NCBI GenBank assembly: GCA_965206125.1 | Contig: CBDBIN010000041.1 | Location: 155,674-219,673, forward strand | Length of the DNA stretch: 64,000 nucleotides | Direction of reading: 5' to 3' | Source of the DNA: Terriglobia bacterium | Lineage (GTDB): Bacteria; Acidobacteriota; Terriglobia; 20CM-2-55-15 | In this document: positions 32,319 through 57,243 of the stretch, one piece after another | Position numbering within the stretch: position 1 is the stretch's first letter | Layout of the letters: the number at the start of each line of letters is the position of its first letter | Notes under the pieces: generated by a model | Databases searched by the model: none | What the model saw: the letters and a program-made list of their open reading frames with translations, nothing else | What the model was told of the DNA's origin: nothing | Made by a program: the position numbers and the translations under genes

Positions 32319-32352
32319 ATTAGCCTCGGCGAGTCGATCCTGAGAGGTTCCG

Positions 32353-38041: not shown

Positions 38042-38249
38042 GTCGCCCCGCGATCCTCAGCTAGAATTCCTAGAGTTACTGACAATAACCTAACAAACTT
38101 GTTGACCTCCAGATGACCCGTCTACCGAATTGGTGGACACGAACAATCTGCGCTTGTTTGTTTTCAATCGGTTAGGTAGTGGCACCCCGCGTGCACTTAT
38201 GTCGATCTAACGGATTGGAAGTGGTTCCATTTGGAAGGAGCTGAGGTTA

Positions 38250-39046
38250 TGAAAGCGGTCTACAAGCTGAGAAAACTGCTGAGAGGGACAAGAGGCGTCG
38301 CAACCTCTCTGATTGAAGCCACCGCCACCGTCGCCATCGGCGCCGTCTTGGCCGGGGTTGCGGTCGGCAGTGCGATCAATTCCATCAACGACTCGAAGAT
38401 TCAGGCCGCCATCGCGGACGTCCAGGTCATGGGCCAGGCCATCATCACGTTCTACAAGGACAATGCCTTCTTCCCGTTGTACAAGGATGGAAACGAAACT
38501 GGACCGGGCGATGATTTCTTCTTCAACCTGGTGTCCCGAAACGGTACGTACCCGACGGACACGACCGGGGACACCTGGAAGATTGCCGGTGCCGGCACCG
38601 GCTACACCGAGAACAACGCCGCTGGGCTTTTCGGCCATGACTTGCTCGCCACGGACGACGCCATCGAAGGGCACCTGGTCAACAATGCCATCGCCGCCAC
38701 CTTTGATGCCCAGACAGGCCTGCTGTCGGCGGGGGCCGGCTATCCGATCCGGGGGGATTATCCGGGTGACGCGCAACGCGGCTGGGCCGGACCTTACGCC
38801 GGCGTTTTGACGAAGGCGGATCCCTGGGGCAGCAAATACATTGTCAACGTCCGGATGCTGCATACCGGAAACTTTATCGGCCAGGATGCCGAAGAAATTC
38901 CGAATGCCGATCCGAACCTCAATTTCCCGTTGGTTGGCGTGGTCGTGCTCTCCGCAGGACCCGACCGCGCGATCGACACGCCCGCCAACCAGCTGGGCGA
39001 CGTGTTCACCGTCAACAACGACGACATCGTCTTCAGGATCAAGTAA
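38250..39046 (+). CDS. GspG-like (T2SS/T4P) pseudopilin with non-canonical prepilin N-terminus
   Basis: C-terminal GspG signature DPWGSKYIVNV...VVLSAGPDRAIDT...DDIVFRI. N-terminal RG|VATSLIE hydrophobic segment with Glu at +7 rather than +5. RBS GGAAGGAG lies 7 nt upstream of ATG 38250. Confidence 0.6.
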
Positions 39047-39099
39047 ACAAAGAGTTTTAAGCCAGACAGTCAATGTTCAGCCCGGGCGCCAGCCCGGGC

Positions 39100-39660
39100 T
39101 TTTTTTTCTGGTGGGAGGGAACTCGGTCACTACAGTTCCTGGTTCTGTCGGGGCAGCAGTGTCCGAACAGAACCCAGAGCGGTAGCGACGGGGTCGGCAG
39201 GCTCGACTGTTGCGGAATGAGTGTCGGTCAGAACCCAGAGCGGTAGCGACGGGGTGATCCCCGCTCCAAAACCCCAGAGCGGTAGCGACGGGTTCGGAAC
39301 CCGGTCACTACAGTTCCCGGTTCTGTTGGGGCAGCTGTGTCCGAACAGAATCCAGAGCGGCATCGATGGGGTCGGCAGGCTCGACTGTTGCGGAATGAGT
39401 GTCGGTCAGAACCCAGAGCGGTAGCGACGGGGTGATCCCCGCTCCAAAACCCCAGAGCGGTAGCGACGGGTTCGGAACCCGGTCACTACAGTTCCCGGTT
39501 CTGTTGGGGCAGCTGTGTCCGAACAGAATCCAGAGCGGCAGCGATGGGGTCGGCAGGCTCGACTGTTGCGGAATGAGTTTCGGTCAGAACCCAGAGCGGT
39601 AGCGACGGGTTCGGAACCCGGTCACTACCGTTCCCGGTTCTGTTAGCTTTCGGTTGATCT
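39100..39660. repeat. Tandem array: about 2.6 copies of a ~178-bp composite unit built from the REP-like core (CAGAAYCCAGAGCGGYAKCGAYGGGG, at least 8 copies) and the hairpin module (GGAACCCGGTCACTACNGTTCCCGGTTCTG, 4 copies)
   Basis: Direct inspection shows 39221-39398 and 39399-39576 are near-identical (identical 67-aa ORFs in the track). Spacers between the cores repeat identically, so this is unit duplication. Confidence 0.85.
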
Positions 39661-40969
39661 AGAACCCGAAGACCGAGAAGAACAGCCGTTTCGTCGAACC
39701 GCTCGCGTCCGGGTTCGTGATGCTGACCGGGACAAAGCCCGAGGTGCCCAGCAGGAGCCCGGGTACCGTGACCACGATCTCGGTCAGGGCCACGCTGTCG
39801 GGCGTCAGGACCGCCGTACCGAAGTTGACCAGAGTCCCAGCGACGAAACCTCCGCCCGAAATCGTAATCGTGACCGACGGGCTGCCCGGCGCTACGATGT
39901 TTGGATCCAGGGTCGCAATCGTCGGCGCAGACGCGCCGCCAGCTACGGCGACGGTGAAGGACTCCGCGGCCGAGCCGCCGCCTCCCGGCTGCGGCGCACC
40001 GACCGTCAGGAAATAGTCGCCCGAGCACTTGATCGTGACCGTGGCGACGATCTGCTGCGTGTTGACGGCAACCCCGGTGACCGCTTCCGGATCGTCACCG
40101 CAGGCTGAAACGATGGCGCCCGCCGTCGGGCCGAAGTTCGCCCCGTTCAGTATGACCGCCGCGTCATAGGTGTCATCGGGCCTGCCGTCGTCAAACGTCA
40201 GCGGCCCCGCGTCGATCGATTCCAGGACGGGACGCAGGTTGTTCAGGATCAACGGCCGGGCTTCGGACTGTCCCAGCGTCGGCGGCGGGTTCTGCACCGA
40301 AATGGCGAACGAGCCCCCCGTGTCCATAAGCCCCTGCTCCAGTGTCGCCGTCAGCGTCGTGCTGCTCAGGAACGTCGTGGGAAGTGGCTCGGAGCCGAAC
40401 AGCACCACAGCTTCCTCGAGGTAGCCGAAGCCCTTGACCGACAATGTCAGCGACGGAGAGTTCGGTTCGAGCCGCACCGTCGCCGATGTCGGGGTGATCG
40501 AGATCATTCCTGGGACCTGGCTGAAAACGTCCACGAGCAATTCGTTGGACGGCCCGACCGTTGGTGACGGATTTGCGGCGGTGATCGTAAGCGTGCCTCC
40601 CGATGCCAGGTCGTCCGCGGGGATGGTCGCCACCAACTCGGTCTCGTCGACCAACGTGGTCGACCGGGCGACGTCGTTCACCAGGACCGAAGCGTCTTCG
40701 AGGAAATCCGCTCCCAGTACTCTCAGATCGAAGCCCGAGTTTCCGGCGATCAGAGGCTCGGGAATCCCGTCGAGTGCGCTGATCGACGGCGCGGGGCTTC
40801 CGACCACGAAGGCCTCCGGATCCGATGACACCGTGTCGCCACCGGGTCCGGCGTTGCGGACGAGCATCTGTCCCTCGCGACCGAGTACGAGCAGCGTCTC
40901 TTCGAGCCTCGTTCCGAGCATGCCGTCATCGATCAGGGTTGTCGGAAGCGGCAACCCGTCAAACACCAC
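39659..40969 (-). CDS. Secreted/pilus-associated protein made of repeated Ig-like (IPT/TIG-like) domains; possibly the C-terminal part of the upstream prepilin-like gene
   Basis: About 4 repeats of a ~90-aa S/T/G-rich beta-sandwich-like unit. No signal peptide of its own. The upstream ORF's odd basic C-terminus suggests a frameshift joining the two. Confidence 0.45.
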   Translation of the reverse strand: MVFDGLPLPTTLIDDGMLGTRLEETLLVLGREGQMLVRNAGPGGDTVSSDPEAFVVGSPAPSISALDGIPEPLIAGNSGFDLRVLGADFLEDASVLVNDVARSTTLVDETELVATIPADDLASGGTLTITAANPSPTVGPSNELLVDVFSQVPGMISITPTSATVRLEPNSPSLTLSVKGFGYLEEAVVLFGSEPLPTTFLSSTTLTATLEQGLMDTGGSFAISVQNPPPTLGQSEARPLILNNLRPVLESIDAGPLTFDDGRPDDTYDAAVILNGANFGPTAGAIVSACGDDPEAVTGVAVNTQQIVATVTIKCSGDYFLTVGAPQPGGGGSAAESFTVAVAGGASAPTIATLDPNIVAPGSPSVTITISGGGFVAGTLVNFGTAVLTPDSVALTEIVVTVPGLLLGTSGFVPVSITNPDASGSTKRLFFSVFGF

Positions 40970-41118
40970 CTCGCTGCTCGGGATGAAAGGCCCGCCGGTG
41001 ATGGCGATGTCCGTCGCCGGGGATCCGAACAGGATGCTCGGCGGAGTGATCGACTCGATCTCGGGTACGATCAGCGTTCCCGCGAAATCGTTGTCCCTGC
41101 TGTTGGCGTCCGTGATCG

Positions 41119-42267
41119 TCAGCGCAATAGTCTCAGGAGCGAAAGTGAACCCCGTGGCCTGGGGATCCTCCGTTTTCCTCGCTCATGAACTTTGTCATCT
41201 TGATCCGGATGTTGCCACCCTCCTGTGGGGTTTCGCCGAGATTGGTGTCGGGAATCCGGGTCAAGGGTGACTGTATGCGGATCGGAAAAGGTCTGTCCCG
41301 TGGTAGACCCGATTCCGACGACGGTCGGTCCCGCAAAGTTCAGGGTTTCCCCGCTGGCTGCGCGGTCCGACGAATCGTCGAAGACTGTCTGGCTGCCAAT
41401 CTCCAACTTCTCATAGAAGGCGGTCACAGTGTATTCCGCCTTGAAACTGGTGATCGTGATGTCGCTCGATCCATGGTTTTGGATCACAAACTCTACCTCG
41501 CTGCCCGACGACAGTGAGACGCCGCTATCGTTGACGTAAACGAGTCCGGGATCGATTGCGAGACTCCGGTTTCCGAACGGAATGTCAGCGAATGTGTAGG
41601 CTCCGTCGTCATCGGTGTCGGTCTCCTGCTCGACGAAGACTCCATCCTGGGGGTGGTTGATCTTTACGTTTACTCCCACCAGGGGATTCCTTCCAGCATC
41701 CCGTACGTACCCGACAACAGTGGACAACATCTCCGTCCTGTAGATCTCCGTCGTGAGATCGTCTCCTCCTCCAACCGCCGCATCCGGTCCGTAACTGAAA
41801 ACTCGGGCCCGGTACTCCTGCCCTGTCGTCGTGCTCGTAGCTGTTTCGACAACGTACTGGATCGGGTTGCCCCACGCATCGAGATCGATCTGATCGAAGA
41901 ATCGGAGTGGTCCTACGTCGAGGTACGGGCCGGTCCATCCGCGGCCCAGCTTTAGGGAGGTGTCAAAGGTATAGCCGGGCTGAGACCCTGCGATCCAGAG
42001 ATCCTCCAGGGAAGAGGGCAGAGAGCCCATGCCAGCCAGCAGGCCAAAATCCATCCGTGCTTCCTTGGTTACGATACGCGGATTGCCTATCAACGCCCTC
42101 TTCAGCATGGAAAGCTTGGCGATCGTCTCCTGTTCGCGGGAGAAGTTCACTTGCTGATCGACGAGTGTTCCTGTTCCGACCACCAGCAGAGCGGTGATCG
42201 CGACGGAAACGATGGCTTCTAAAAGAGTAAAACCCCGGCTGCACCGATAATAATCCGTGATCGTCAT
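41119..42267 (-). CDS. Prepilin-type N-terminal cleavage/methylation domain protein with a GspG-like segment (DAWGNPIQY) and a CarbopepD_reg-like domain
   Basis: RG|FTLLEAIVSVAITALLVV (Glu+5) class-III signal. VGYVRDAGRNPLVGVNVKI resembles a carboxypeptidase regulatory domain. Confidence 0.55.
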   Translation of the reverse strand: MTITDYYRCSRGFTLLEAIVSVAITALLVVGTGTLVDQQVNFSREQETIAKLSMLKRALIGNPRIVTKEARMDFGLLAGMGSLPSSLEDLWIAGSQPGYTFDTSLKLGRGWTGPYLDVGPLRFFDQIDLDAWGNPIQYVVETATSTTTGQEYRARVFSYGPDAAVGGGDDLTTEIYRTEMLSTVVGYVRDAGRNPLVGVNVKINHPQDGVFVEQETDTDDDGAYTFADIPFGNRSLAIDPGLVYVNDSGVSLSSGSEVEFVIQNHGSSDITITSFKAEYTVTAFYEKLEIGSQTVFDDSSDRAASGETLNFAGPTVVGIGSTTGQTFSDPHTVTLDPDSRHQSRRNPTGGWQHPDQDDKVHERGKRRIPRPRGSLSLLRLLR

Positions 42268-42477
42268 CACTCCGATATTATGGCTTTGGGACCTAGTGGT
42301 TGCAACCATTTGTGGCGTCGTAAGGGACGGTGTGGCGCCGTCGGAACTTGCGGACCGGTTCGTGCTTGGCACGTCACGACCCGGGTTCCTTAAGGTTGGA
42401 CAAATTCTTCCGGAAGCAGAGCGGACCCTCCGGGGAGGGTCCGTAAGGAACGAGCAGAACAGGTGTTGGGCCGCGGG

Positions 42478-43071
42478 TCACCGGATGCGGTGGACGATGT
42501 CGTCGCCGCCGACCGCGAACGCGGCGACGTTGGGGTCCTGGTCGTATTCCGTGTCGAGCGTCTTGTCGGGTCCCGCCGAGATCACGAAAACGGCTTCCTC
42601 CTGGCCAGGCTTCAGGAAAGTCGCGTTCAGGTAATACTTGGTCCCCCAGGGGTCCGTGGAAATATCGTTCATGTAGGCGCCGTTCCAGGCCCGAAGACCG
42701 ATCGTGGTCAGCGCGAGCGAGTTCTCGTTGATGACCGCCGACATGTCGCCGTTGGTGCCTGTAGTCCAGGCGTCATCCGTGCTGTTGTCCGTCGGAACGT
42801 CGCCGTCGGTCTCGAGGGCGTCGTACGCATCCCCGTTCGGGATGTCGGACTGGTCGACGTAGATCGGCCAGATTCGAGTATCCGTATTGAAAGAGATGAT
42901 CGCCGCCGCGATGTTTCGTACGTCGTTTCGCGCCGTGTTGATACGGGCGCGGTCGATGTAGCTGGTGATCATCGGCGTGATGATCGACGCCAGGATCGCA
43001 ATAATCGCAAGCACGACGACGAGTTCCATCAAGCTCCATCCGCCGTTCGCTCTATCTCTTATTGATCGCAT
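42478..43071 (-). CDS. GspG-like major pseudopilin/type IV pilin
   Basis: GG|WSLMELVVVLAIIAILASI (Glu+5), and C-terminal DPWGTKYYLN...VISAGPDKTLDT...DDIVHRI. Confidence 0.7.
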   Translation of the reverse strand: MRSIRDRANGGWSLMELVVVLAIIAILASIITPMITSYIDRARINTARNDVRNIAAAIISFNTDTRIWPIYVDQSDIPNGDAYDALETDGDVPTDNSTDDAWTTGTNGDMSAVINENSLALTTIGLRAWNGAYMNDISTDPWGTKYYLNATFLKPGQEEAVFVISAGPDKTLDTEYDQDPNVAAFAVGGDDIVHRIR

Positions 43072-43311
43072 GGTCTGCTCCTCTTTGAAACGTCTCCCTT
43101 GCCCACTGAAGCACATGAGGTACCATGTTCCCAAAAGGTGTTATCTCATTGAATTCAGACGGATCCGGTCCAGGTATCCCTCATCTCGGGCTACGGAAAT
43201 GGTAGACAATGACCCAGTCCACTCTCGAAACTTGTTGAATATTGACAGTAATTGAAGCAAATTCACGTTTAATCCCTTGATTTTCGGTTAGGTAGCAGGC
43301 TTGCTATCTAT

Positions 43312-45141
43312 TTGAGAAGTATGTCCGAGACTGCACCCGGAAAGGCGACGACGAACCGCCGTGTCGTCGTCGTCATGTTCAGCGACATCGTCGGTTTCAC
43401 CGAGTACTGCGACAAGCACGGTGAAGAGGAAGGCGTAGAGCTCGTCGCTCGCCATGAGGACATGGTCTTCCCGATTATCGAAGCCCAGAAGGGGACGGTC
43501 GTCAAGACCATCGGGGACGCCGTCATGGCCTACTTCGAGGATGCCCCGCACGCCGGGATGGCCGCCAAGGAGATGATGCAGGCCGTCGCGCGCGACAACG
43601 CGGACAGGACCTCCGACCAGCAAATGCAGCTCCGGGTCGCCTTCCACCTCGGTCCTGTCATCGTCCGGAACAACGATCTTTTCGGGGACACCGTCAACCA
43701 GACCTCCCGTATGGCGGGAGTCGGCAAGCCCGGACAGATCCTGATCTCGAAGACGATGATCGATGTCTTGAGCGAGGATTCCAGATTCATCTGCCGTTTT
43801 GTCGGGAAGGCGGACTTCCACGGGAAGACGGGCACCATCGAGCTTTTCGAGATCCTGACCGAGGACCTGGAGCTCACCGAAAAGAAGAAGTCCCGGATCG
43901 TGTCCGACAGCGCGGTCAAGGACGCCCCGGCCGAGGGTCAGGGGCGACTGATTGGGGATAAGTACTTCATAGAAAAGCTGATCGGGGAAGGGGCCTACGG
44001 CAAGGTGTTCAAGGCGCGGCATGCCGAGACCAAGGAAACGGTCGCGATCAAGATGCTGCCCGAGGATGCCTACGCTTTCTACAGCAGGGAAGCCCAGGTG
44101 CTGCGCCAGCTCCAGCCTTGTCCCTACATCATGGCGATCCTCGACGCCCTGGTGGATGAGGATGGTCTCTGCATTGTGATGCCCTACATCGAGCACGGTA
44201 GCCTGCAGACCTACATGAACACGCTGCACGGCGATCCGCTCGAGCCGGGGCAGACGATTTCCCTGATGGAGGAGCTCCTGCTGGGCATCGCGCATGCCCA
44301 TTCGCGCGACGTGATACATCGGGACGTGAAGCCGCAGAACATCCTGCTCGCGAACGGTACCGACGGGATTCTGTCCGACTTCGGCATCGCCCACGCCATG
44401 GAGTCGACCGGGCGCACGAGCACGATGACCCAAGGGACCTCCGGCTATATCGCTCCGGAAGTCACATCAGGACGGTTCGACAGCACGATCGACGTGTATT
44501 CGGCCGGCGTCGTGCTGTACAAGATGCTCGGCGGCGAGTTTCCCGTGGACATGGAGACGCTGCCCCCCTATACGCACCCCGATTTCGTCAAGATCATCGC
44601 CCGCGCCATAGCCGAGCGTCCCAAGCGTTACTCGACCCCCGAGGACATGCTCGGGGATCTCCACGGAATGGCGTCGAAGGTGCTCAGCTCGACGATCGAG
44701 TCGATCGCTCAGTCGGGCGAGGAAAGGGTGCTGGTGGCGGTCGAAGACTCCAGCTGGTCGATCATGGAACCGGCCCTGGAGGCCAGGAAGTTCATCAACA
44801 TCCGCTGCGGGCTCGACAATATCCTCAAGTATGTCCACTGGAAGTATGTCCACTGGCACATTCCCGCCGTAACCGTCCTGGATGCCGCGCTGTTGAACTC
44901 GTCGGGGATCGATGTGAACGAACGCGTCGCCGCATGCAGCGCCCTCGGGACCCGCGTGATCGTGATCAACTGCGGCGCGATCGAGGAAGCCCAGGACCTG
45001 ATCAAGAACGGCGCCGCCGACTGCACCGCCGCCATCGGCGCCCCGCAGTCTCTCGAAGCCCTCACGATGTCCATCGACACCATGATTACCCAGATCCAGC
45101 TCGGGTCCGGGAAGTCGTGGTGGAAACGCATCCTCTCTTAA
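43312..45141 (+). CDS. Fusion protein: class III adenylate/guanylate cyclase domain + Ser/Thr protein kinase domain + C-terminal uncharacterized domain
   Basis: Cyclase block VVVVMFSDIVGFTEYCDKHG...TIGDAVMAYF...FHLGPVIV...GDTVNQTSRM. Kinase block IGEGAYGKVFKA...VAIKM...HRDVKPQNILL...DFGIAH...GTSGYIAPE. Confidence 0.75.
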   Translation: MRSMSETAPGKATTNRRVVVVMFSDIVGFTEYCDKHGEEEGVELVARHEDMVFPIIEAQKGTVVKTIGDAVMAYFEDAPHAGMAAKEMMQAVARDNADRTSDQQMQLRVAFHLGPVIVRNNDLFGDTVNQTSRMAGVGKPGQILISKTMIDVLSEDSRFICRFVGKADFHGKTGTIELFEILTEDLELTEKKKSRIVSDSAVKDAPAEGQGRLIGDKYFIEKLIGEGAYGKVFKARHAETKETVAIKMLPEDAYAFYSREAQVLRQLQPCPYIMAILDALVDEDGLCIVMPYIEHGSLQTYMNTLHGDPLEPGQTISLMEELLLGIAHAHSRDVIHRDVKPQNILLANGTDGILSDFGIAHAMESTGRTSTMTQGTSGYIAPEVTSGRFDSTIDVYSAGVVLYKMLGGEFPVDMETLPPYTHPDFVKIIARAIAERPKRYSTPEDMLGDLHGMASKVLSSTIESIAQSGEERVLVAVEDSSWSIMEPALEARKFINIRCGLDNILKYVHWKYVHWHIPAVTVLDAALLNSSGIDVNERVAACSALGTRVIVINCGAIEEAQDLIKNGAADCTAAIGAPQSLEALTMSIDTMITQIQLGSGKSWWKRILS

Positions 45142-45142
45142 G

Positions 45143-45180
45143 CCAGAACCGAGAGCGGTAGCGACCGGGTAATTCCGGGC
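45143..45180. repeat. REP-like core copy (CCAGAACCGAGAGCGGTAGCGACCGGGT) starting 2 nt after the cyclase-kinase stop
   Basis: Matches the core at 39160-39640. Confidence 0.5.
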
Positions 45181-45354
45181 CAAAGGGCGACCCGTAGGCA
45201 TGTAGTGGGGGCCCGGCCAGACGTTAGAAACTAAAGGAATGGCAGGCGTGGGGGGACCGTGCCCGTTTGAGTTCCCGCTATCATGGGCTAGAAACCCAGC
45301 CAGGGCACTCTCCGAGTCGGGCGAGCGTAGGCGCGGTGGGCCCGACGCTAAGGG

Positions 45355-45437
45355 AAGAACCGAGAGCGGTAGCGACCGGGTGACTCCCAAGCGACCAGTT
45401 CTCATTTCCGACCCCGTCGCTACTGCTCCGGGTTCTG
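45355..45437. repeat. REP-like element as an inverted pair (GAACCGAGAGCGGTAGCGACCGGGTGA ... GACCCCGTCGCTACTGCTCCGGGTTCTGA), predicted long hairpin
   Basis: The reverse complement of the right arm is about 85% identical to the left arm. Both match the dispersed core. Confidence 0.5.
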
Positions 45438-45733
45438 ACTGCGGGGCAAGCAAGGGACACGTCAAGATTCCCGATCTACAGTGACATCAGCTCGGCGAAT
45501 TCTGATGTGCCCGCGGCAGCAGACCTTCAGGGTGACGGCGACGCCCCGACCACGGGAGCCGGATGGGCTCTGACATCGTCGATCGACCTCGATGAATACC
45601 TCAACACGGAAAAGCTGGGCCTAGCGCGACCGGCGCTCGGGGCAAGTCTTTCGGTGATTTCGGCCCAGGCTGTGAGCCCGCTTTTCTCGCCGGTTTCCGG
45701 CGCTGCAGCAGACTACTGGCGAGAAATGCGGGC

Positions 45734-46324: not shown

Positions 46325-46337
46325 GTGGACAGCGGCA

Positions 46338-47616
46338 TTACCCGCCACTCGAAAGTTCCCGGATCTTCTGTTCGACACTTTCGACGAATTGGGGATACTG
46401 GCTGGAACCGAGTTCGAGGAAGCGGTTGAAATGATCGATCGCCTCGCGGACCTCGCCTTGCTCTTCGTACAGCCAACCGAGGTTGTAGTGGGCTGCGGCG
46501 CTCGCCGGGTTGGCCTGGAGAGCCTCGAGATACAGGATCTTGGCCCGCTCCGTCTCACCCTCGTTCCTGTAATGGTTGGCGAGGTTCGTGATGGCATCGG
46601 CGTTCCGCGGGTTTATGGCGATCGCCCGCTCGTATTCCCGGACGGCTTCCGACTCCTGACCCGCTTCCAGGAGGGCCGTTCCCAGGTTGTTGTGGGCCAG
46701 GTCGTAGTTGGGGTTGATCACGATCGCGAGCCGGAACTCTTCGATCGCAGCGGCATTGTTCGACATCGCCATGTAGAGCAATCCGAGGTTGTTCCTGGCG
46801 GAGGCGTTCCGAGGATCGGCATCGAGAACCTGGATGTAATAGGGCAGAGCTTCTAAGTAGCGACCGGCCTGGTGATAGAGCAGGGCCGAATCGAACGGAT
46901 CGCTGACCGCAGGCTCGACCCGTGGATCGCCTGCCGCCGGCGGATTCGGCGATGATGCGGGATCATCCCCGGCGAGTGTTGTCTGGATCGCGATCTCATC
47001 CTCGCCCGGCGTCGCGGACCCGGGTCCGGTATCTACCGCACCCTCGGGGTCCAGATCCTGGGCAGCGGGCTCGTCTGGTTCTATTGCTAGCGACGGCTCC
47101 GCATCAGGAGCAGGCACGGGTGGCGGCGTTGCGTTGGACGTTTCGGCTTGCTCCATCGTCGGTGGTTCGGGCTCCTGGGCCCCAGAGGCCGGGCCTGGCT
47201 CTTGCTCCCCGGCGGCCACCGGATCGCCCTCTACGACTTCGCCGGTCCCCGCCTCCCCACCGTCCGGGCTCGCCTCTTCTGGCCCGCCCTCTTCGGGTCC
47301 GTCCTCAGGGGGCAACAGGCCATCGTCGTCCGGGAACAGCGGGTCGGTTCCGGGAGCTGGGTCGATCTCGAGCAACTGAGCCTGCTCGGCCATGGGTGAG
47401 GAGGCGGTCCGGTTGATCCAGTAGAGCACCCCCGAGGCAATAATCGCGCCGAGTACAACGACCGGTACGACATAGGTCAGCAGGATCTTCTTTGTCTTGT
47501 TTCCTTTGGCCTGTTCTGCGAAACCGAAGCTCTTGAGGTAAGCCGGCGCCTTCTGAGGCCGCGGACCCGCCCGCCAGCTTCTTTGCCTTGCGCAGTGCGT
47601 CGAGGATGGAGCTCAT
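46338..47616 (-). CDS. GspB/MshN-like protein: N-terminal MSSILDALRKAKK motif, TM helix, Pro/Glu-rich linker, C-terminal TPR repeats; apparent +1 frameshift between the N-terminal 30 codons and the rest
   Basis: ATG at 47616 encodes MSSILDALRKAKKLAGG. The TPR ORF frame is open upstream to that point with no start of its own (…KAPAYLKSFGFAEQAKGNKTKKILLTYVVPVVVLGAIIASGVLYWINR). Confidence 0.5.
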
Positions 47617-47640
47617 GAGCCTCTCTGGTCTGATCTCAGT

Positions 47641-47916
47641 CTAGCAGCCTGTGGCAGAACCCTGTGGGGCCGCGCGCACGGGTCTTCGGGTCGCGGGCGC
47701 GAAGAGAGGAGGGCACGATGCGGTTTCATCGTAACCGACGAGGGACAAAGCCCGAGGCCCGAACCCCCATGCGCCCGAAGGGTTACGGCGAAACGGCACC
47801 GGATTCGTTGTCGTCGACTCCTCACAATGAAAGGGCATTGTCTCGTCCTCGTCTCCTAGAATCCGGTGCCGTTTGGCCGTAACGCGACCCCACAGGGTTC
47901 TGCCACAGGCTGCTAG
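47641..47916. repeat. MITE-like/long palindromic element (276 bp): perfect 29-bp terminal inverted repeats CTAGCAGCCTGTGGCAGAACCCTGTGGGG, plus nested inner inverted repeats (GGTTACGGCGAAACGGCACCGGATTC / GAATCCGGTGCCGTTTGGCCGTAAC)
   Basis: Seen directly. Bases 47641-47669 are the exact reverse complement of 47888-47916. The inner IR pair is 47779-47806 versus 47858-47885. The left half carries a 109-bp insertion between outer and inner repeats. Confidence 0.75.
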
Positions 47917-48872: not shown

Positions 48873-48918
48873 GACGCGTCGAATCGTCCTCCTGGTCCTT
48901 GCTGGATTGCCCGAGGGG

Positions 48919-50424: not shown

Positions 50425-51026
50425 CGTTTACTCCCTCGAGGCGGACCCGGTCTTAGCCCGAAGGGCCGCTCGATCAAGATTTCGCGTACCTGTCCGTTCA
50501 ATTCCAGAATGATTCCCCTATCGGTGATTGACGTTATGGTTTCCGTGCCCAGGAGCTCGCCCGGCCGCATGACCCTCGAGTTGACGACGGCCCACTTGCC
50601 GTTCTCACCCGAAAAGATTACCGACACCCGGTAGGAGGGAAGCGCTACCGTTGCAGTTGGGGCCTCGATCAAAGGCATGATGGGTACGATGATCTGTCCC
50701 GGTTGCGACTGCATGGCGGCGATCTCATCGAGTGTCAGAAAGGGATTGCGACCCCATACGCCCTGGGGCAGGGAGACCGCTTGGGCGGGCTCCGTCCCGG
50801 TGCCGGTTAGTGCGGGCGCCGCCGAGGGTGTGCCGGCCGGCGTCGGCTGGGCGGGTGGGGCGATTACCGCTGGGGGTACGGGTTCCTGTGAAGCCGGGTC
50901 CGCCGGAGCCTCGGCGGTCACAATCGGTGGGGCGGGCCGTGAGCGCCACACCTGCAAGCCGATCACGCCTCCGATCATGATGACGCCGAAGACAATGAGG
51001 AGGCCCTGCTTCGCTTTCTCACTCAT
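50421..51026 (-). CDS. PilP/GspC-like pilot protein (TM anchor, Pro-rich linker, C-terminal beta domain)
   Basis: Position in the operon, topology and composition only. Confidence 0.45.
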   Translation of the reverse strand: MSEKAKQGLLIVFGVIMIGGVIGLQVWRSRPAPPIVTAEAPADPASQEPVPPAVIAPPAQPTPAGTPSAAPALTGTGTEPAQAVSLPQGVWGRNPFLTLDEIAAMQSQPGQIIVPIMPLIEAPTATVALPSYRVSVIFSGENGKWAVVNSRVMRPGELLGTETITSITDRGIILELNGQVREILIERPFGLRPGPPRGSKR

Positions 51027-51607
51027 GCGGCATCCTCAGCCTTGTACACGCGGAAGACCATCGAGACCCGGATCTCCGGAGGGCTCCGGCGGAAATCTAC
51101 CGAAACGAATTCCGTCAGACGCGGCAGGGTCCCCACGGCCTGGACGAACTGGGCGATGTTGCTGTACTCGCCGCCGAACGTGATCGTGAACACCAGGTAG
51201 CGTCGGATGCCCACCTGGTCCAGCAGTTCGTCGCCCGGGCGGGGCCCCTGAACTTCTCCGACGACCTGTTCTTCGGAATCGATGTCGAAATCTTGCAGCC
51301 TGTAGACCCCCGACAGCCGGGAAATTTCGCTGAAGAACTGCGCGACCTCGGCGTCGGGAAGCAGCCGGCTCGCCAGCAGGTTCTGCTGGGACGCCCACTC
51401 CCGCCTTTCTTCGTCCGTCGGAAGGACAACGGCATCGGCATCCAGTTCCTTCTGGGCCAGCACCCGTTCTTGCTCCGCCAGGGCGTCGCGCCTGGCACCG
51501 AGATCCCAGGTGGTCCAGACCGTTCCCGCGATTGCAAGCACGATTAGAGCGACCGAGGCGACCAGCACACGGTCGACTTTCTTCAGAAACTTGAGGTCAA
51601 TAGGCAT
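51023..51607 (-). CDS. PilO/GspM-like inner-membrane assembly protein
   Basis: Single TM, coiled coil (ALAEQERVLAQKELD), C-terminal ferredoxin-like domain. Operon context. Confidence 0.5.
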   Translation of the reverse strand: MPIDLKFLKKVDRVLVASVALIVLAIAGTVWTTWDLGARRDALAEQERVLAQKELDADAVVLPTDEERREWASQQNLLASRLLPDAEVAQFFSEISRLSGVYRLQDFDIDSEEQVVGEVQGPRPGDELLDQVGIRRYLVFTITFGGEYSNIAQFVQAVGTLPRLTEFVSVDFRRSPPEIRVSMVFRVYKAEDAA

Positions 51608-53106
51608 CGGACTTCGAAGTTCACCCTGCTGATGACGATCGGGGCCGTTTCCGCATCGGCTCCCGGCGGTCGGACATTTTCGTAGCTCACGCTCAGTTGC
51701 TCGCTCAGTTCGACGGACCGGAAGTGCTCCAGCCCACTTAGATCCGTGAAGAACGCGTTAAAATCCGCGCTGACGTTGGTCGCTGCCTGCGCCCCACGAA
51801 GGTACCCCTTGATGACCAACGCGCTGGACTGGCCGCCCTCGATCGCTATCGACTCAAACACCGCCGTTTCAGGCACGATGAGGCTCAGGCTGCGGAGGGC
51901 CTCATTCCATTGCACCCCGCCCGCCATCCGTTGAGCGAACGCCGCCCGCCTCTGGGCCACGGCACGCTCCGCCTCTGCGTCGATGCCTCCCTGGATAACC
52001 GGTTCCAACTCGGCGATGCTCTGTTCCACGGCCGCAGTCTCTTCGACAGCCTGCCTGGTTCCCGTGAAATACCGAAAGCCGGCCAGGAGCGACACCGTCA
52101 AGGCGATTGCTGCCGCTATCTTGATCAGTTTTTGGTAGACGGGAGGCCCTTCCTTCGAGCCGGCCTTGCCCGGTATCAGGTTCAGGCTCGAATCGAGCGT
52201 CTTGTGCCAGGCTACTCCGAATGCGGTCGCCAATGAGGGCACATGAAATCGGAACTCGTCCCAGTCTCCCTTGAAAGCCGACGGATCGAGGTTGTCTTCA
52301 AACCTCAGGACATTCGATTCGATTCCGAGTTCATCCTTCGCCCGGGCTACCAGGTTGCCGATCATGTCGCTTTCGCCCGAGAAAAGCACCACGCCGATCT
52401 CCCCCTGGGGGAAGTTCTGCCGGAAGTACAGGGTCGACCGTTTGATTTCGGTCAATATCCGCTCGATCCGCTGGTCCTGGTCGAGGTCTCCGTAGCGGAT
52501 AGGGATGTCGCGGCAGAGCAGGAGCGTGCCGTGTTGGATGAAGAGCACATGGACGCTGTTCGGGCTGAAATGAACGAGGTTCTTGACCACCTCCTTCTTC
52601 CAATAGCCGACGTGCTCGGTCAGGTTCAGCAGCGATTCACCGACGGTGGTCACGCGCTCCAGCTTCAGCTTGGTTCGTCCGAAGAACTCCTGGGCCTGGG
52701 CGACGAGTTCCGTGTTGGCCGTGACGAGCAGGATCTGGCGCTTCTTGATGCCGAGCTCTTCTTTGGTCTGGAGGAGTTGGAAATCCCAGAACGTATCGGT
52801 GACGCCGGCGGGAACGGACTTCTTCGCCTCCCGTTGCATCACGAAACGCAGCTCGCGGCCCGACAGCGGGGGCAGCGTCAGCAGGCGATGCTCCACCTGG
52901 ACACCCGTCACGGCCACGACGGCTTCTTTCGCTTCGAACCCGCGCACCTGTAGCGCGTGGTTCAGCTGGTCGAACCGTCGCTCCGGGTCGACCGAGCGGT
53001 TGTCCACGATGGCGAAGTTGTGAACCTTGAGCCGGCGGGCGAAGCTCACCTCGACGAGCTTGATGCTCTCAGGCGAAAACTCTACTCCCAGAATGCGGTT
53101 TGCCAT
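51583..53106 (-). CDS. PilM-PilN fusion protein (actin-like ATPase fold plus TM/coiled-coil PilN part)
   Basis: PilM-like N-terminal 330 aa (…ILGVEFSPESIKLVEV…), then a TM helix (IAAAIALTVSLLAGF) and a PilN-like coiled coil. Confidence 0.7.
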   Translation of the reverse strand: MANRILGVEFSPESIKLVEVSFARRLKVHNFAIVDNRSVDPERRFDQLNHALQVRGFEAKEAVVAVTGVQVEHRLLTLPPLSGRELRFVMQREAKKSVPAGVTDTFWDFQLLQTKEELGIKKRQILLVTANTELVAQAQEFFGRTKLKLERVTTVGESLLNLTEHVGYWKKEVVKNLVHFSPNSVHVLFIQHGTLLLCRDIPIRYGDLDQDQRIERILTEIKRSTLYFRQNFPQGEIGVVLFSGESDMIGNLVARAKDELGIESNVLRFEDNLDPSAFKGDWDEFRFHVPSLATAFGVAWHKTLDSSLNLIPGKAGSKEGPPVYQKLIKIAAAIALTVSLLAGFRYFTGTRQAVEETAAVEQSIAELEPVIQGGIDAEAERAVAQRRAAFAQRMAGGVQWNEALRSLSLIVPETAVFESIAIEGGQSSALVIKGYLRGAQAATNVSADFNAFFTDLSGLEHFRSVELSEQLSVSYENVRPPGADAETAPIVISRVNFEVRCLLTSSF

Positions 53107-53110
53107 CGGT

Positions 53111-54214
53111 TTACCCTGAGAACGTCTGCATCATCTGATACAGAGGCAGGTAGATCGCCAACGCCACGGTAAGGACGATGAAGGCCAGGAAGACGTAGAG
53201 CAGCGGCTCCATCATCGCGAAAACCCGTTTGATCGTGGCCGGAATCTCCTTGTCGTAGTAGACGCACACCTTCTTGAGCGCAGAATCGAGCTGGCCGCTC
53301 GTCTCGCCGACATGGAATACTCTGATGACCATCGGAGGGAACCGACCAGTTGCCTTCAGCGATCCCGCGATGGATTCGCCCGCGCGAACCTCGTTCCGCA
53401 CGGATGCGGTTGCGTTGCCGAGGACTTTGTTGCCGACGACCGTCTGCAGGATCATGAGAGTCTGTGAAATATCGACGCCGGCGTTGAATAGAATCTGGAA
53501 GAAGTGGCAGAAGCGCGACAGCGCGATATCCCGGACGAGTGCGCCAAATATGGGCGCTTTCATCATCAGACCGTCAAACCTGAGGCGCCCGGACTCGGTT
53601 CGAACCCAGAAGTAGAAACCGATCAAGCCCGTGATCAACAGCATCAGGAGGAGCCACCAGTAGGCGAGAAGGAACTCGCTCAGACCGAACAGGATCTGCG
53701 TCGGGATTGGCATCGGGCCGCTCGCGGACGACAGCACGTTGCTGAAGCTGGGGAACACGACGGTTGCCAGCAGGATGACCAGGCCCATAACCGCAGACAA
53801 GACCACCGCGGGGTAGATCAAGGCCTGGGTAACTTCCCGCCTCAGGTCGCCCTTCCATTCCAGAAAATCCGCCAGGTCCGAGAGGACCAAGTCGAGGCTT
53901 CCCGAATCCTCTCCGGCGCGGAGAATGCTGACGTAGACCTCGTCGAAGATGTCGGAGTGGCGTTCGAAGGCCGACGACAGGCTACCGCCGGCTTCCACGC
54001 TGGCGAGAATGTCCTCAATCACGTTACGCATCTTCGCCTTCTCGGCGCCGTCGGCCAGGTCCCGGAGCGATTCGGTCAGCGATATGCCGACGCTCAGCAT
54101 CGTCGCCAGATCCCCCGTCAGGTTGAGGACGTCCCGACCCCGGATTCTTTCGAACATCCGCGCGCCGGCTTCCTGTTTCGTTGCCGGGCCCGCATCGACC
54201 AGAAAGAGGGTTGA
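53111..54214 (-). pseudogene. GspF/PilC-family platform protein, C-terminal 368 codons (separated from its N-terminal 38 codons by an IS30 insertion)
   Basis: T2SSF repeats (…LATMLSVGISLTESL…, …QILFNAGVDISQTLMILQ…). The translation resumes exactly where the N-terminal piece stops (…SLAG | STLFLVDAGPATKQ…). Confidence 0.8.
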
Positions 54215-55447
54215 TCTCAATAGGTCGATGCAACACTTCACATGAAGAGAGAGGTGAAGTGTATGGCGAAGAAACGAAAGCAGAAGCCGAGGAGGCAGCG
54301 GCGATGGTTCACAGCGACCGAGCTGGTCGAGATGTGGGATCGATGGCAGCGAGGAGAGACGACCGAGGAGATCGGGCGTGTGCTGGACCGAGCCAGAGCG
54401 ACTGTTCACCAGCAGCTGGCGGTGTATGGTGGTATCCGTCCCCGACGGCGGTGTCGCGCAGCGCGGGTGCTGACTCTGATCGAACGCGAAGAGATATCCA
54501 GGGGCATCGCGGCGAAGCGATCGATTCGCTCGATTGCGATGGTTGTCGGTCGCGCACCCTCGCCGGTGAGTCGAGAGATTGCCCGTAACGGCGGCTATGC
54601 TCACTATCGGGCGTCAGCTGCGGATGAGCAGGCCTGGGAACGCGCCCGCCGTCGGAAGCCTTGTCGCCTGACCCGGTGTCCACGATTACGGCAGCTCGTT
54701 GAAGAGAAGCTGCGAGACGATTGGGCACCTCAACAGATTGCCGGGTGGCTGAAGCTCACATTCCCGGACGACGAGTCGCTGCACGTGTCCCACGAAACCA
54801 TCTATCGCAGCCTTTTCATACAGGCGCGCGGTGCTTTGAAGAAGGAGCTCACTCAGTATCTGCGCTCGAAACGATCCATCCGCCGATCCCCCTGGCACAC
54901 GGGACGCAGGGGCCACGGAAGCGGACAAATCAACGATGCCATCTCCATCAGCGAACGTCCGGCTTCAGTGGAAGACCGCGCCGTCCCCGGTCATTGGGAA
55001 GGCGACCTGATTGCCGGATCGAAGAACACCTACATGGCGACGCTGGTCGAACGTCACTCACGTTACGTGATGCTGGTGAAGGTTCCGAACAAGCAAACCG
55101 AAACCGTCATCAACGCGCTGATCGAACACGCTCGGACACTACCGACCGAGCTCTACAAATCGCTGACCTGGGATCGTGGTCTGGAGATGGCGGATCACAA
55201 ACGGTTCACTCTGGCGACCGACATTGCCGTCTACTTCTGCGATCCGAAGAGTCCATGGCAACGGGGCTCGAATGAGAACACAAATGGTCTGCTCCGATAC
55301 TATTTCCCGAAACGAACGGACTTATCCGTACACTCACAGGAGCATCTGAATATGATTGCGCGGAAGCTCAACAGACGGCCCCGTCAGACGCTGGGGTTTC
55401 ACACTCCAGCTGAACGATTTAACGCATGTGTTGCATCGACCGGTTGA
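54215..55447 (+). mobile_element. IS30-family insertion sequence, copy 3 (divergent from copies 1/2), inserted in gspF
   Basis: The left end TCTCAATAGGTCGATGCAACAC is IR-like, as in copies 1/2. The right end overlaps the transposase stop (..ATCGACCGGTTGA). Both flanks encode contiguous GspF sequence. Confidence 0.8.
54242..55447 (+). CDS. IS30-family DDE transposase (401 aa)
   Basis: HWEGDLI, TWDRGLEM, FCDPKSPWQRGSNENTNGLLRYYFPKRTDL. About 65-70% identical to the other two copies. Confidence 0.9.
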   Translation: MKREVKCMAKKRKQKPRRQRRWFTATELVEMWDRWQRGETTEEIGRVLDRARATVHQQLAVYGGIRPRRRCRAARVLTLIEREEISRGIAAKRSIRSIAMVVGRAPSPVSREIARNGGYAHYRASAADEQAWERARRRKPCRLTRCPRLRQLVEEKLRDDWAPQQIAGWLKLTFPDDESLHVSHETIYRSLFIQARGALKKELTQYLRSKRSIRRSPWHTGRRGHGSGQINDAISISERPASVEDRAVPGHWEGDLIAGSKNTYMATLVERHSRYVMLVKVPNKQTETVINALIEHARTLPTELYKSLTWDRGLEMADHKRFTLATDIAVYFCDPKSPWQRGSNENTNGLLRYYFPKRTDLSVHSQEHLNMIARKLNRRPRQTLGFHTPAERFNACVASTG

Positions 55448-55560
55448 GCCGGCAAGGCTTTTTTCGTCCAGAAGATCGGCGAGCACATCCTCGTCCGGCG
55501 CCTCGAGCACGCCAGTAACCGTACGGCGTTCTGGTCCTTGGCTTTGTATTCGAATTCCAT
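55448..55560 (-). pseudogene. GspF/PilC N-terminal 38 codons (MEFEYKAKDQN-[1-nt deletion]-RTVTGVLEAPDEDVLADLLDEKSLAG), cut off by IS30 copy 3
   Basis: Classic GspF N-terminus. 113 nt rather than 114, with a frame change after codon 11. Confidence 0.7.
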
Positions 55561-55581
55561 CGGGTTCTTCAAAGAGCTGGA

Positions 55582-57243
55582 TCAGACTGCCCGTGCGACT
55601 TCTTCCAGCGTCGTTACTCCTTCGATCGCCCGTTCAAGGCCGTCGTCGGCCATCGAGAGCATGCCTTCTTTTTGGGCGAGTTCCCGGATCACGCCCGCGT
55701 CCGCCTGGCCCATGATGGCTTTGCGGATCTCTTCGTTCATCAGCAGTACTTCTGAGACTGCTGTCCTGCCCCGGTATCCGGTCTTATCGCAGTTGTTGCA
55801 TCCCGTTCCCTTGAAGAACTGCGCGTTCTCCGGGATTTTGATCCGTCGGAGCGTCCTCCGGTCCGGTTCGTCCGGTTCGCGGCAGAACTCGCAGATCTGC
55901 CGGACGAGTCGCTGGGCGACAATCCCGACGATCGAAGAGGCGACCAGGTACGGTTCGACGCCCATGTCCAGCAATCGGGGTACCGTTGAGGCAGCGTCGT
56001 TTGTGTGCAGCGTGCTGAACACGAGCAATCCCGTCAGAGCCGCGCGAATCGCCGTGTCGACCGTTTCGTCGTCGCGCATCTCACCGACCAGCACGGTGTC
56101 GGGATCCTGTCGGAGGATCGCCCGGAGCCCGGTCGCATAGGTCAGGCCGGCCCGTACGTTGATTTGAGACTGCCGGATCAACGGAAGTTCGTACTCCACC
56201 GGATCCTCAAGTGTGATGATCTTCCTCTCCGGCGTGCTGATGCGCAGCAGCGCCGCGTATAGCGTCGTCGTCTTGCCCGAACCCGTCGGTCCCGTCACGA
56301 GGACGATCCCGTTTGGGAACGAGATCGCTTGTTCCAGCCGATCGAGGTTCGTCGGGGAAAATCCGAGTTGTTCGAGGCCCGTAGCCAACTGTTCCTTATT
56401 CAAGACACGCAGAACAACGTTTTCGCCGAAGATCGTCGGGAACGTCCCGATCCGGACGTCGATCTGGCGGCCGTAGACCTCGACGGTCGCCTTGCCGTCC
56501 TGGGGTAACCGTGACTCGGAGATGTTGAGGTTCCCCATGATCTTGATACGGGAGTTGACGGCTTTCTCGAGGGTCTTCGGGATGTACGGACCCTGGTGGA
56601 GGACGCCGTCGATCCGGTAGCGCACGCGCAGCAGGCTCTTTTCGGGTTCGAAATGAATATCAGTCGCGCGCTTTTTCACCCCGTCGATGATGATGGCGTC
56701 GATGAGCTTGACGACCGGCGCCACCATGGCCAAGTCCTCCCCGCCTTTGTCGGTGCTCCCTTCGGAGGCCTGTCTCGACGCTTCTTCGAGAAGCGCCTCC
56801 ATCTGGTCGCTCGCGCCCTGGCCGTAGAAACGGTCGATGGACGTGAGGATGTCGAATTGGCTGGAGGAGACGATCTTCACGAACTGACCCGTGATGCGCT
56901 GCACGTCGTCCACGGCCCCGACATCCATCGGGTCCGACATGGCAATCGTGATCGATCCGTCATCTGTCGACACGGGAAACAGTTTCTTGTCGCGGGCGAA
57001 TTTTTCGGGGATGGATTCGATCACCGACGGGTCGATCGATTGATTTCGGAGCGTGATGTACTCGATACCCGCCGCCTCGGCCAGGGTCCGGGTCAGGGCG
57101 TCTTCTGTGATCAGGTTCAGCCGACGCATGATCACGCCGAGCCGGTCGCCGCTCCGCGCCTGTTCCTTCAGGGCGAATTCCAACTGGTCATCGGAGATGT
57201 GGCCGCCCTTGATCAGACGTTGACCCAATCTGTTGTCAGCCAT
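55582..57243 (-). CDS. GspE/PilB/MshE-family secretion ATPase
   Basis: N-terminal T2SSE_N region, Walker A GPTGSGKTTT, Asp box, Walker B, His box, and the tetracysteine motif C..C...C..C (CEFCRE...CNNCDKTGY). Confidence 0.9.
   Translation of the reverse strand: MADNRLGQRLIKGGHISDDQLEFALKEQARSGDRLGVIMRRLNLITEDALTRTLAEAAGIEYITLRNQSIDPSVIESIPEKFARDKKLFPVSTDDGSITIAMSDPMDVGAVDDVQRITGQFVKIVSSSQFDILTSIDRFYGQGASDQMEALLEEASRQASEGSTDKGGEDLAMVAPVVKLIDAIIIDGVKKRATDIHFEPEKSLLRVRYRIDGVLHQGPYIPKTLEKAVNSRIKIMGNLNISESRLPQDGKATVEVYGRQIDVRIGTFPTIFGENVVLRVLNKEQLATGLEQLGFSPTNLDRLEQAISFPNGIVLVTGPTGSGKTTTLYAALLRISTPERKIITLEDPVEYELPLIRQSQINVRAGLTYATGLRAILRQDPDTVLVGEMRDDETVDTAIRAALTGLLVFSTLHTNDAASTVPRLLDMGVEPYLVASSIVGIVAQRLVRQICEFCREPDEPDRRTLRRIKIPENAQFFKGTGCNNCDKTGYRGRTAVSEVLLMNEEIRKAIMGQADAGVIRELAQKEGMLSMADDGLERAIEGVTTLEEVARAV

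Follow-up and report, generated by a model that had tools for sequence, protein, structure and literature searches.

Does a gene cluster that carries the recognisable parts of a type IV filament (T4F) machine still encode a working one, and which member of the superfamily would it have been? We address this for a locus in a 64,000-nucleotide stretch of contig CBDBIN010000041.1 from a Terriglobia bacterium, the whole of which is called the window below; the locus runs between a homoserine dehydrogenase gene and a gene for a DUF5916 protein. A sequence-only reading had taken it for a complete T4F locus in an Acidobacteriota-like genome, probably non-functional or recently inactivated. The G+C content of the window (55-66%) gives rise to many spurious open reading frames (ORFs), and the real genes were therefore chosen by domain content, using Pfam and NCBIfam profile scans. 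These scans assigned the listed ORFs to T4F families, leaving the original gene list largely as it was, and the closest genomes to the window are Terriglobia metagenome-assembled genomes (MAGs), as the proposed affiliation would have it. Completeness, however, did not hold: comparison with the relatives L086, L092, L093 and a JGI contig shows that the window lacks some 16 kb of sequence belonging to the conserved locus, and the locus here bears at least six disabling lesions. The region is very probably a pseudogenised copy of a conserved, single-locus T4F system of Terriglobia.

The reference architecture was drawn from four independent loci (L086, the JGI 3300047160 contig, L092 and L093), whose maps agree. 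In relatives the intact locus spans about 33-35 kb and begins with genes for a gspE/mshE-like ATPase, the platform protein GspF, a PilM-N fusion, PilO, a PilP-like protein, a secretin, an ExeA-like ATPase, a tetratricopeptide repeat (TPR) protein and an A24 prepilin peptidase, the last lying within the locus in all relatives examined. Genes for a PAS/HisKA sensor kinase, a sigma54 (NtrC-type) response regulator and three or four small GspG-like pilins follow, and after them a cyclase-kinase gene on the opposite strand, one small pilin gene, four genes for long pilins (about 380-450 aa) and a further small pilin gene. At the distal end, most loci encode a secreted TIG-repeat protein of about 1030 aa (its gene stands beside the pilins in L083, L092 and L093), and a convergent gene for a 257-270-aa pilin adjoins the homoserine dehydrogenase gene. 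Acidobacteriota are abundant and poorly studied, and their surface machines are little known; this map provides a reference architecture for a conserved filament locus of Terriglobia.

Set against this map, two deletion or inversion events have stripped the copy in the window of its two-component system, of four small and three long pilins and of half the TIG gene. Positions 42422-45176 are colinear with L086 at 97% identity and the peptidase gene begins to be read from 45623 onward, with an inverted remnant of a small-pilin gene at the breakpoint; on this side, the relatives' maps place the PAS sensor kinase, the sigma54 response regulator and about three small pilins. Also lost are long pilins 2-4, one small pilin and the 5' half of the TIG gene, so that four of the six small pilins and three of the four long ones are gone in all. 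What had been described as a long prepilin with Ig/TIG repeats is a deletion chimera of two genes, in which the long pilin was joined at 41165/41166 to the 3' half of a gene for a Sec-signal protein of about 1030 aa. Blastn identity of the window to L081 and L086 begins abruptly at 41165; in both of these relatives several kb separate the TIG gene from the long pilin genes; and the full-length TIG homologues P0003 (1033 aa) and P0004 (1067 aa) start with a Sec-type signal peptide and not with a prepilin signal. A single 870-aa pilin-TIG fusion was considered and rejected, as the reconstructed query matched proteins over its TIG part only and relatives encode two genes.

Several of the genes that remain are broken. 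The platform gene gspF is split by an insertion sequence (IS) of the IS30 family and also carries a window-specific 1-nt loss at 55528 (GGCC to GGC, codon 12), both as first reported; the loss was placed by alignment to the intact allele of L085. The IS-free allele, the existence of which had been queried, was found in that genome: P0130, 400 aa, is the one full-length member of the 90% cluster around the truncated GspF. It reads MEFEYKAKDQNGRTVTG... and, where codon 12 is broken in the window, KAKDQNGRTVTG; the window changes frame after KDQN. A lesion that had been overlooked lies in the TPR gene, which starts at 47616 (MSSILDALRKAKKLAGGSAA) and then jumps frame. Here a window-specific 1-nt insertion at 47559/47560 (GGC to GGCC), near codon 20, is absent from L085, L087 and L090, whose intact orthologues are 422-425 aa. 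The long pilin that is left is thrown out of frame by an additional T in the T run at 41286-41289, and it lacks its last 28 or so codons. Because gspF is both split and frameshifted, the TPR gene and the only long pilin left are frameshifted, and large parts are missing, the system is unable to work as sequenced in the window. A locus that is complete by its domain list may still be a pseudogene cluster, which is a lesson for annotation.

Table 1. Features of the filament locus and its borders, in window coordinates.
Feature	Coordinates	Strand	State	Evidence or remark
Homoserine dehydrogenase	36746-38041			bounds locus on one side
Sigma54-type -24/-12 element (candidate)	38180-38195	+		upstream of 265-aa pilin gene
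Atypical GspG-like pilin, 265 aa	38249-39046	+	intact	T2SSG marginal, 21.9 vs cutoff 21
TIG/"choice-of-anchor Z" repeat gene	39659-41165	-	3' half	TIG; CoaZ_rpt_PGGG 223.7 bits
Long pilin	41166-42267	-	frameshifted, 3'-truncated	N_methyl, CarboxypepD_reg beta-sandwich; class III signal G/FTLLEA
GspG-like small pilin, 198 aa	42478-43074	-	intact	T2SSG, N_methyl; class III signal G/WSLMEL
Sigma54-type -24/-12 element (candidate)	43110-43125	-		upstream of 198-aa GspG-like pilin gene
Adenylate cyclase + Hanks-type Ser/Thr kinase + receiver-fold domain, 609 aa	43312-45141	+	intact	Pfam; conserved synteny
Rearrangement scar	45453-45622		inverted 170-nt remnant of small-pilin gene	breakpoint 45622/45623; blastn vs L086
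Short A24 prepilin peptidase, 204 aa	45734-46348	-		Peptidase_A24 (PF01478) 46 bits; start set by analogy with 204-aa L085 gene
TPR protein (MshN-like)	46338-47616	-	frameshifted	TPR families
ExeA/MshM-like AAA ATPase, 319 aa	47913-48872	-	intact	AAA_22 89.9 bits
Secretin, 501 aa	48919-50424	-	intact	Secretin 135.5 bits + STN
PilP/GspC-position protein, 201 aa	50421-51026	-		weak T2SSB and CdsD_C matches; position kept in all relatives
PilO/GspM-like, 194 aa	51023-51607	-	intact	Pfam PilO 33 bits
PilM-N fusion (GspL/MshI-like), 507 aa	51583-53106	-	intact	PilM_2 on residues 7-149
gspF platform gene	53111-54209 + 55455-55560	-	disrupted	Pfam T2SSF (PF00482) 177.7 bits, two domains
gspF, 3' part, about 366 codons	53111-54209	-		98% DNA identity to intact L085 gene
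IS30-family insertion sequence, 1245 bp	54210-55454	+		transposase ORF 54242-55447
gspF, 5' fragment, codons 1 to about 36	55455-55560	-		frame analysis
gspE/mshE-like assembly ATPase, 553 aa	55582-57243	-	intact	Pfam T2SSE (PF00437) 420 bits vs cutoff 24.9; MshEN (PF05157) 72 bits
DUF5916 protein	57602-59851			bounds locus on other side

The core genes identify the superfamily and sit uneasily within any one of its named branches. The ATPase belongs to the GspE/PilB family of assembly ATPases and has a Walker A motif (GPTGSGKT), two CxxC pairs and an N-terminal MshEN motif of the type that binds cyclic di-GMP (c-di-GMP); it passes the MshE-type model NF053729 (53.8 against a cutoff of 38). 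In the in-frame translation, GspE is 77% and GspF 74-78% identical to the proteins of relatives; looked up by exact match, neither the GspE of the window nor P0007 led to an encoding contig. The PilM-N protein has a transmembrane segment near residue 340 followed by a C-terminal periplasmic part, and it is conserved at 68-70% identity in L001, L002, L075 and L009. The peptidase retains both Asp motifs (LIDLRTQ and GGGDWKL) and has no methyltransferase domain. Next to the secretin gene, the first reading had placed a GspA(ExeA)/GspB(TPR) pair; the ExeA-like ATPase stands (AAA_22), whereas its TPR partner resembles MshN and not GspB. The ExeA-like protein occupies the MshM position, its nearest curated model being pepcterm_ATPase (254, under the cutoff of 324).

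No curated equivalog for a type II secretion system (T2SS), a type IVa pilus (T4aP) or a mannose-sensitive haemagglutinin (MSH) pilus reached its cutoff in the window, the models concerned being GspE, GspF, GspD, GspG, PilB, PilQ, PilM and MshL. The T2SS scores, for GspE, GspF, GspD and GspG in turn, were 571 against 630 (TIGR02533), 309 against 424 (TIGR02120, scored on the 367-aa C-terminal part only), 161 against 351 (TIGR02517) and 63 against 88.9 (TIGR01710); those for the T4aP were 545 against 676 (PilB), 146 against 284 (PilQ) and 56 against 133 (PilM). The best NCBIfam model for the secretin was MshL (TIGR02519), at 202.7 under a cutoff of 250.2. The locus thus appears to be a variant of a known machine that lies outside the curated definitions of T2SS, T4aP and MSH alike. 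On this sequence evidence it should not be filed under any of the three names, but as a superfamily member that would work like them.

The msh loci of Vibrio and Shewanella (mshHIJKLMNEGF/mshBACDOPQ), which contain the gene order mshI-J-K-L-M-N, offer the closest likeness in plan. As there, everything stands in a single locus, with an MshEN-type ATPase, a platform gene, a secretin best matched by MshL, an ExeA-like ATPase and I/J/K/N-like genes; there is no PilT gene, and the run PilMN-PilO-PilP-secretin-ExeA-TPR is colinear with mshI to mshN. In contrast, the ATPase and platform genes come first here, whereas in msh they follow mshN. The pilins are GspG-like and not MshA-like, four long pilins of about 400 aa with CarboxypepD_reg domains stand in place of MshO/P/Q, and the locus also encodes a two-component pair with a sigma54 regulator and a cyclase-kinase-receiver protein. 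The claim that the gene order is MSH-like rather than gsp-like holds for the order itself, the secretin match and the MshE-type motif, but not for membership: the MshL model stays under its cutoff, and this locus and its relatives carry their own A24 peptidase. Membership was judged by the TXSScan/Denise 2019 definition, in which MshM is mandatory. MSH loci have no prepilin peptidase (PMC6668835), and reports of them come only from Gamma- and Epsilonproteobacteria and from Chrysiogenetes (PMC6668835), whereas this locus belongs to Acidobacteriota.

Likeness to the T4aP lies in an ATPase nearest to PilF/PilB structures, in PilM and PilO domains, and in a sensor kinase and sigma54 activator that adjoin pilin genes with -24/-12 motifs upstream. 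It differs in lacking PilT/PilU genes, PilY1 and PilVWX-type minor pilins, in the fusion of PilM with PilN and in having everything in one locus; for PilT, neither the locus nor the window ORFs that were scanned gave a match.

The surviving pilins are themselves of mixed character. The 198-aa pilin ends in DPWG...GGDDIVHRIR and shares 98% identity with its 197-aa counterpart in L086; its N_methyl match is just below the Pfam cutoff (20.5), and it passes TIGR02532 (20.5 against 16.3). Window pilins scored against GspG only, and the libraries used held no MshA profile. The long pilin passes PF07963 (26.4 against 21.2) and belongs to a family of 318 clusters (library scan, E<=1e-10), mostly of 380-440 aa. 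Class III signals can be read directly in these two sequences, as expected of T4F pilins in a locus with an A24 peptidase; the third pilin is atypical. Its N-terminus, RG-VATSLIE, implies Glu at +7 or Ala at -1, and the motif is kept in the L083 orthologue. Two pilin paralogue families (window 38249-38330, with orthologues in L083 and L092) share this non-canonical G-V-A-x-x-L-(I/L)-E, in which Glu takes position +7 counted from Gly, or +5 should the peptide be cut after Ala.

One further property of the long pilin was noted. It is only 50% identical in protein sequence to its 412-aa positional orthologue in L086, whereas the flanking DNA is 97% identical, and in the comparison of 41166-42421 with L086 7861-9099 the break in identity falls exactly at the start codon of the orthologue. 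The gene is a highly divergent allele or a paralogue, and the sharp break suggests allele replacement or strong diversifying selection.

Upstream of the pilins, two candidate sigma54 elements were found. The one before the 265-aa pilin gene is the only match in the window with at most one mismatch, and it is conserved upstream of the L081 and L083 orthologues. The one before the 198-aa pilin gene (TGGTAC-N5-GTGCT) was retained because it is conserved upstream of orthologues, namely in L086, L092 and L093, with a variable spacer. Across the two sets of pilin orthologues, TGG(C/T)AC and (T/G)TGC boxes are conserved and spacers vary. Together with the adjacent sigma54 activator and PAS kinase, these elements resemble the control of pilins by PilS/PilR.

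The cyclase-kinase gene, which the first reading had described as embedded in the locus, is conserved at this position in L086, the JGI contig, L092 and L093, and its homologues (60-98% identity) lie on the same contigs as GspF homologues. Its presence as a strain-specific insertion was considered, since other genes stand directly after the peptidase gene in L002, L075, L081 and L085, and was rejected: the gene is conserved a few genes further on in intact loci. The cyclase domain (PF00211, 80 bits) has the six catalytic and specificity residues of class III adenylate cyclases, with D25, K65, D69, D122, N129 and R133 invariant among the 24 homologues aligned. We take these to comprise the two metal-binding Asp residues, the Lys and Asp that contact the substrate, and an Asn and an Arg that act on the transition state; because the Lys/Asp pair is present, the enzyme should use ATP. 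The kinase domain (PF00069, 160 bits) is of Hanks type, and its GEGAYG, AIK, HRD, DFG and APE motifs are invariant in the same 24-sequence alignment. The last 150 residues adopt a CheY-like receiver fold in an AlphaFold2 model (AF2; mean pLDDT, its per-residue confidence score, 79), and the top receivers retrieved by Foldseek were Spo0F, KdpE and NtrC1 (probability 1.0, template modelling score 0.6-0.77). Pfam Response_reg was not detected in this C-terminal domain; an Asp that closes beta3 is the same in all homologues aligned, and the Thr/Ser and Lys that receivers conserve seem to have been replaced. At 44827-44856, just before the invariant H-W, 15 nt are perfectly duplicated in tandem and in frame, so that KYVHW occurs twice; the 23 other homologues lack this duplication.

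From these parts a working scheme for the intact system can be proposed. The peptidase would trim the class III signals, and the ATPase, probably responsive to c-di-GMP through its MshEN motif, would drive polymerisation of the pilins on GspF. The PilMN-, PilO- and PilP-like proteins would connect the platform with the secretin, which the ExeA-like and TPR pair would help through the wall, as has been proposed for MshM/MshN and for ExeA. The pilin genes would be read from sigma54 promoters under the two-component system of the locus, and the cyclase-kinase would add control by cAMP and phosphorylation. More speculatively, the sensor kinase might address both the sigma54 regulator and the receiver-like domain, and so tie transcription of the pilins to cAMP and Ser/Thr phosphorylation. 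Rather than a classical T2SS, the system most likely built an MSH-type adhesive pilus or short fibre on the cell surface; this reading is favoured by a pilin set both large and diverse, by sigma54 control, by the likeness of the secretin to MshL and by an ATPase nearer to PilF/PilB. It may instead have served in secretion, since its pilins are of GspG type and a gene for a large secreted protein lies next to them.

That possibility has a stronger form, in which the ancestor was a true T2SS with a periplasmic pseudopilus of GspG-like pilins, the TIG protein or other exoproteins were its cargo, and the window holds a dead T2SS. We consider this rather unlikely. Although the top NCBIfam matches are GspE, GspF and GspG, every T2SS equivalog stayed under its cutoff, and of the remaining components GspC, H, I, J, K and N were not detected: a GspJ trace of 19.7 against 64.85 on the N-terminus of the long pilin was all that the minor-pseudopilin models gave, and those for GspC, H, I and K gave nothing. 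The PilM-N protein, an actin-like part fused to a periplasmic one, resembles GspL, a GspM/PilO-like partner, a secretin and a prepilin peptidase are present, and the locus has no retraction ATPase, but the best secretin model is MshL and, among solved structures, the ATPase is nearer to Thermus PilF (506 bits) and Geobacter/Myxococcus PilB (459) than to GspE (375). An ExeA-like partner is known from the Aeromonas T2SS, whereas the accessory partner here is a TPR protein and not ExeB-like. Finally, the gene for the secreted protein of about 1030 aa adjoins the pilins in three relatives but is missing from the JGI contig version of the locus, and six small GspG-like and four long pilin paralogues under sigma54/PilSR-like control are typical of pili.

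Several observations weigh against the reading of the locus as a regulated, MSH-like filament system that has since decayed. The GspG-best pilins, and an ATPase for which the NCBIfam score of GspE is slightly above that of PilB, fit secretion as much as a pilus. The PilP-like protein is named by its position. Neither the strict nor the relaxed published MshEN pattern for c-di-GMP binding (PMC5013675) matches the window ATPase, which passes by the hidden Markov model alone: motif 1 fits 11 of the 12 specified positions and motif 2 only 8 of 12. Control of the ATPase by c-di-GMP is, on these matches, plausible. At two mismatches the sigma54 motif is not enriched in the window, and the element of the 198-aa pilin taken alone is not above chance. 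Mis-assembly is, in principle, also a possible source of both deletion junctions.

The insertion in gspF can be read more closely, as the L085 genome is 97-98% identical to the window on either side of the IS and has the empty site, which reads CAGAAAGAGGCTTTTTT. This comparison sets the bounds of the element given in Table 1 and reveals a 3-bp target duplication, AGG, at 54207-54209 and 55455-55457. The transposase scores 283.8 bits against NF033563 (cutoff 80) and has HTH_38 and rve domains, and subterminal 21-bp inverted repeats (54216-54236 and 55428-55448) are 90% complementary. Thus a DDE transposase, terminal inverted repeats, a short target duplication and an empty site are all present. 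The element is like the IS30 family in its length of about 1.2 kb, its repeats, its duplication, its transposase and a target that adjoins a sequence like the inverted repeat (PMC9333248), and unlike IS30 itself in a duplication of 3 bp instead of 2 bp and in the outermost 6 nt of its ends, which are not complementary. The sequence GCATCGACC, which forms the core of the element's inverted repeats, occurs in the gspF target at 54192-54200, 9 nt from the insertion point, and has only one other occurrence in the 64-kb window. IS30 has been reported to target hot spots or sites beside its own inverted repeats (PMC9333248).

A second IS30-family element sits in gspF of L087-L091 (five contigs from four assemblies), in the same orientation and 0-2 nt from the position in the window. 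The two elements have the same 27-nt right end, and these shared features would suit a single old insertion, common to the window and L087-L091, after which L085 regained gspF by excision or recombination. We find this improbable: over their length the elements are only 78.7% identical, their transposases have diverged at synonymous sites (dS 0.90) by 5-7 times as much as the hosts (dS 0.13-0.19; ratio of nonsynonymous to synonymous divergence, dN/dS, of the transposases 0.14), and L085, the sister of the window (dS 0.02-0.10), has a clean empty site. Simple insertions of IS30 have also been reported not to be reversible by excision (PMC9333248). Because the elements are far more diverged than their hosts and the site in the sister lineage is empty, two independent IS30-family insertions at one gspF site are the simplest reading, and this site is a candidate natural hot spot for the family.

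It is more improbable still that the frameshifts and deletion junctions are artefacts of MAG assembly or sequencing and that the locus is intact in the cell apart from the IS: related MAG loci do show frameshifts (L075 gspE and exeA, L009 pilMN) and one of the frameshifts falls in a homopolymer (TTT to TTTT), but about 16 kb of flanking sequence shows essentially no gene-breaking indels against two sister genomes, two of the three frameshifts lie outside homopolymers, the IS has its target duplication and empty-site allele, the 45622 deletion leaves an inverted gene remnant that is hard to obtain by mis-assembly, and the contig names of relatives (ctg257317l) may point to high-accuracy long-read assemblies. 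In the flanks, aligned to L081 and L085, indels were intergenic, in frame or compensating, and the sole frameshift, at 32276, touches the last 14 or so codons of a gene. The contrast between a lesion-rich locus and near-clean flanks argues that the lesions are not random assembly noise.

Decay of the locus is not confined to the window. L085 and L086 make up its sister lineage, and there gspF is intact while other genes are broken: a 1305-bp IS lies in the secretin gene, pilMN has a 2-nt deletion, an IS481 element lies in the TIG gene and two IS256 copies stand among the pilins. In L087-L091 (dS 0.13-0.19 to the window), besides the IS30-family element in gspF, the secretin gene is split, exeA has a 2-nt insertion at codon 2, and a deletion from the N-terminus of the kinase into a long pilin has wholly removed the cyclase-kinase. 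L081, which is on the same contig as L087, has three copies of a 491-495-nt element within 13 kb (461-955, 9518-10008 and 12453-12947; 99.8-100% identical) that interrupt the TPR/peptidase junction, the TIG gene and the orthologue of the 265-aa pilin, the last by a 491-nt copy; it looks like an active non-autonomous mobile element. In L009 a transposase gene, presumably ISL3-like to judge from its sequence, lies inside gspE.

The genes that survive have nevertheless been under strong purifying selection until recently, with dN/dS between lineages of 0.04-0.24 (gspE 0.04-0.07; pilMN 0.15 and pilO about 0.24 for the window against L087). Because low dN/dS persists while each lineage bears its own lesions, the losses are recent relative to the lineage splits and independent of one another, which extends the first suggestion of recent inactivation from one genome to three conspecific lineages with different lesion sets. 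It offers a clear natural case in which members of one species-level group have, repeatedly and independently, lost a costly envelope machine. It is tentative, and on balance doubtful, that the intact ancestor was a distinct, undescribed T4F branch of Terriglobia that is also a recurrent target of loss in natural populations. If so, the branch would join an MSH-like core with a short peptidase of its own, many GspG-like pilins, the four long beta-sandwich pilins and a cyclase/kinase/receiver regulator dedicated to it; its losses could mean that the filament is selected against, for instance by phages or grazers, and that the gspF site serves as a built-in off switch.

The genome of the window is rich in IS elements, with three IS30-family copies, a DDE_Tnp_1_4 transposase and an IS256-family element in the window alone. 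Two of the IS30-family copies are of a third type, lie in inverted orientation at 7383-8603 (-) and 11743-12886 (+), share about 74% identity with the gspF element and have the inverted-repeat core in common with it. The DDE_Tnp_1_4 transposase gene lies between them, within 9300-10832, in an arrangement like that of a composite transposon. The IS256-family (Transposase_mut) element spans 32344-33720, with its transposase at 32375-33619 (-), about 20 nt past a stop codon, and is absent at this site in L081.

Repeats were seen between genes as well. Between the convergent 265-aa pilin gene and the TIG remnant, a 178-nt tandem repeat is present in 2.8 copies with 96% matches (39118-39609); related short repeats are dispersed between other genes, at 29434-29487, 45144-45176, 45356-45452 and 62852-62881, and L081 and L086 have arrays like these. 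Scanned against Rfam over its full length, the window yielded one tRNA only, outside the locus. Elsewhere, a second Ser/Thr kinase gene at 3635-6334 (+), unrelated to the locus, encodes 899 aa with C-terminal PD40/WD40-like beta-propeller repeats, and a GGC/GTG-rich repeat in the gene at 61379-62695 differs in copy number from that of L085 by 27 nt in frame at 62325 (9 nt in L087).

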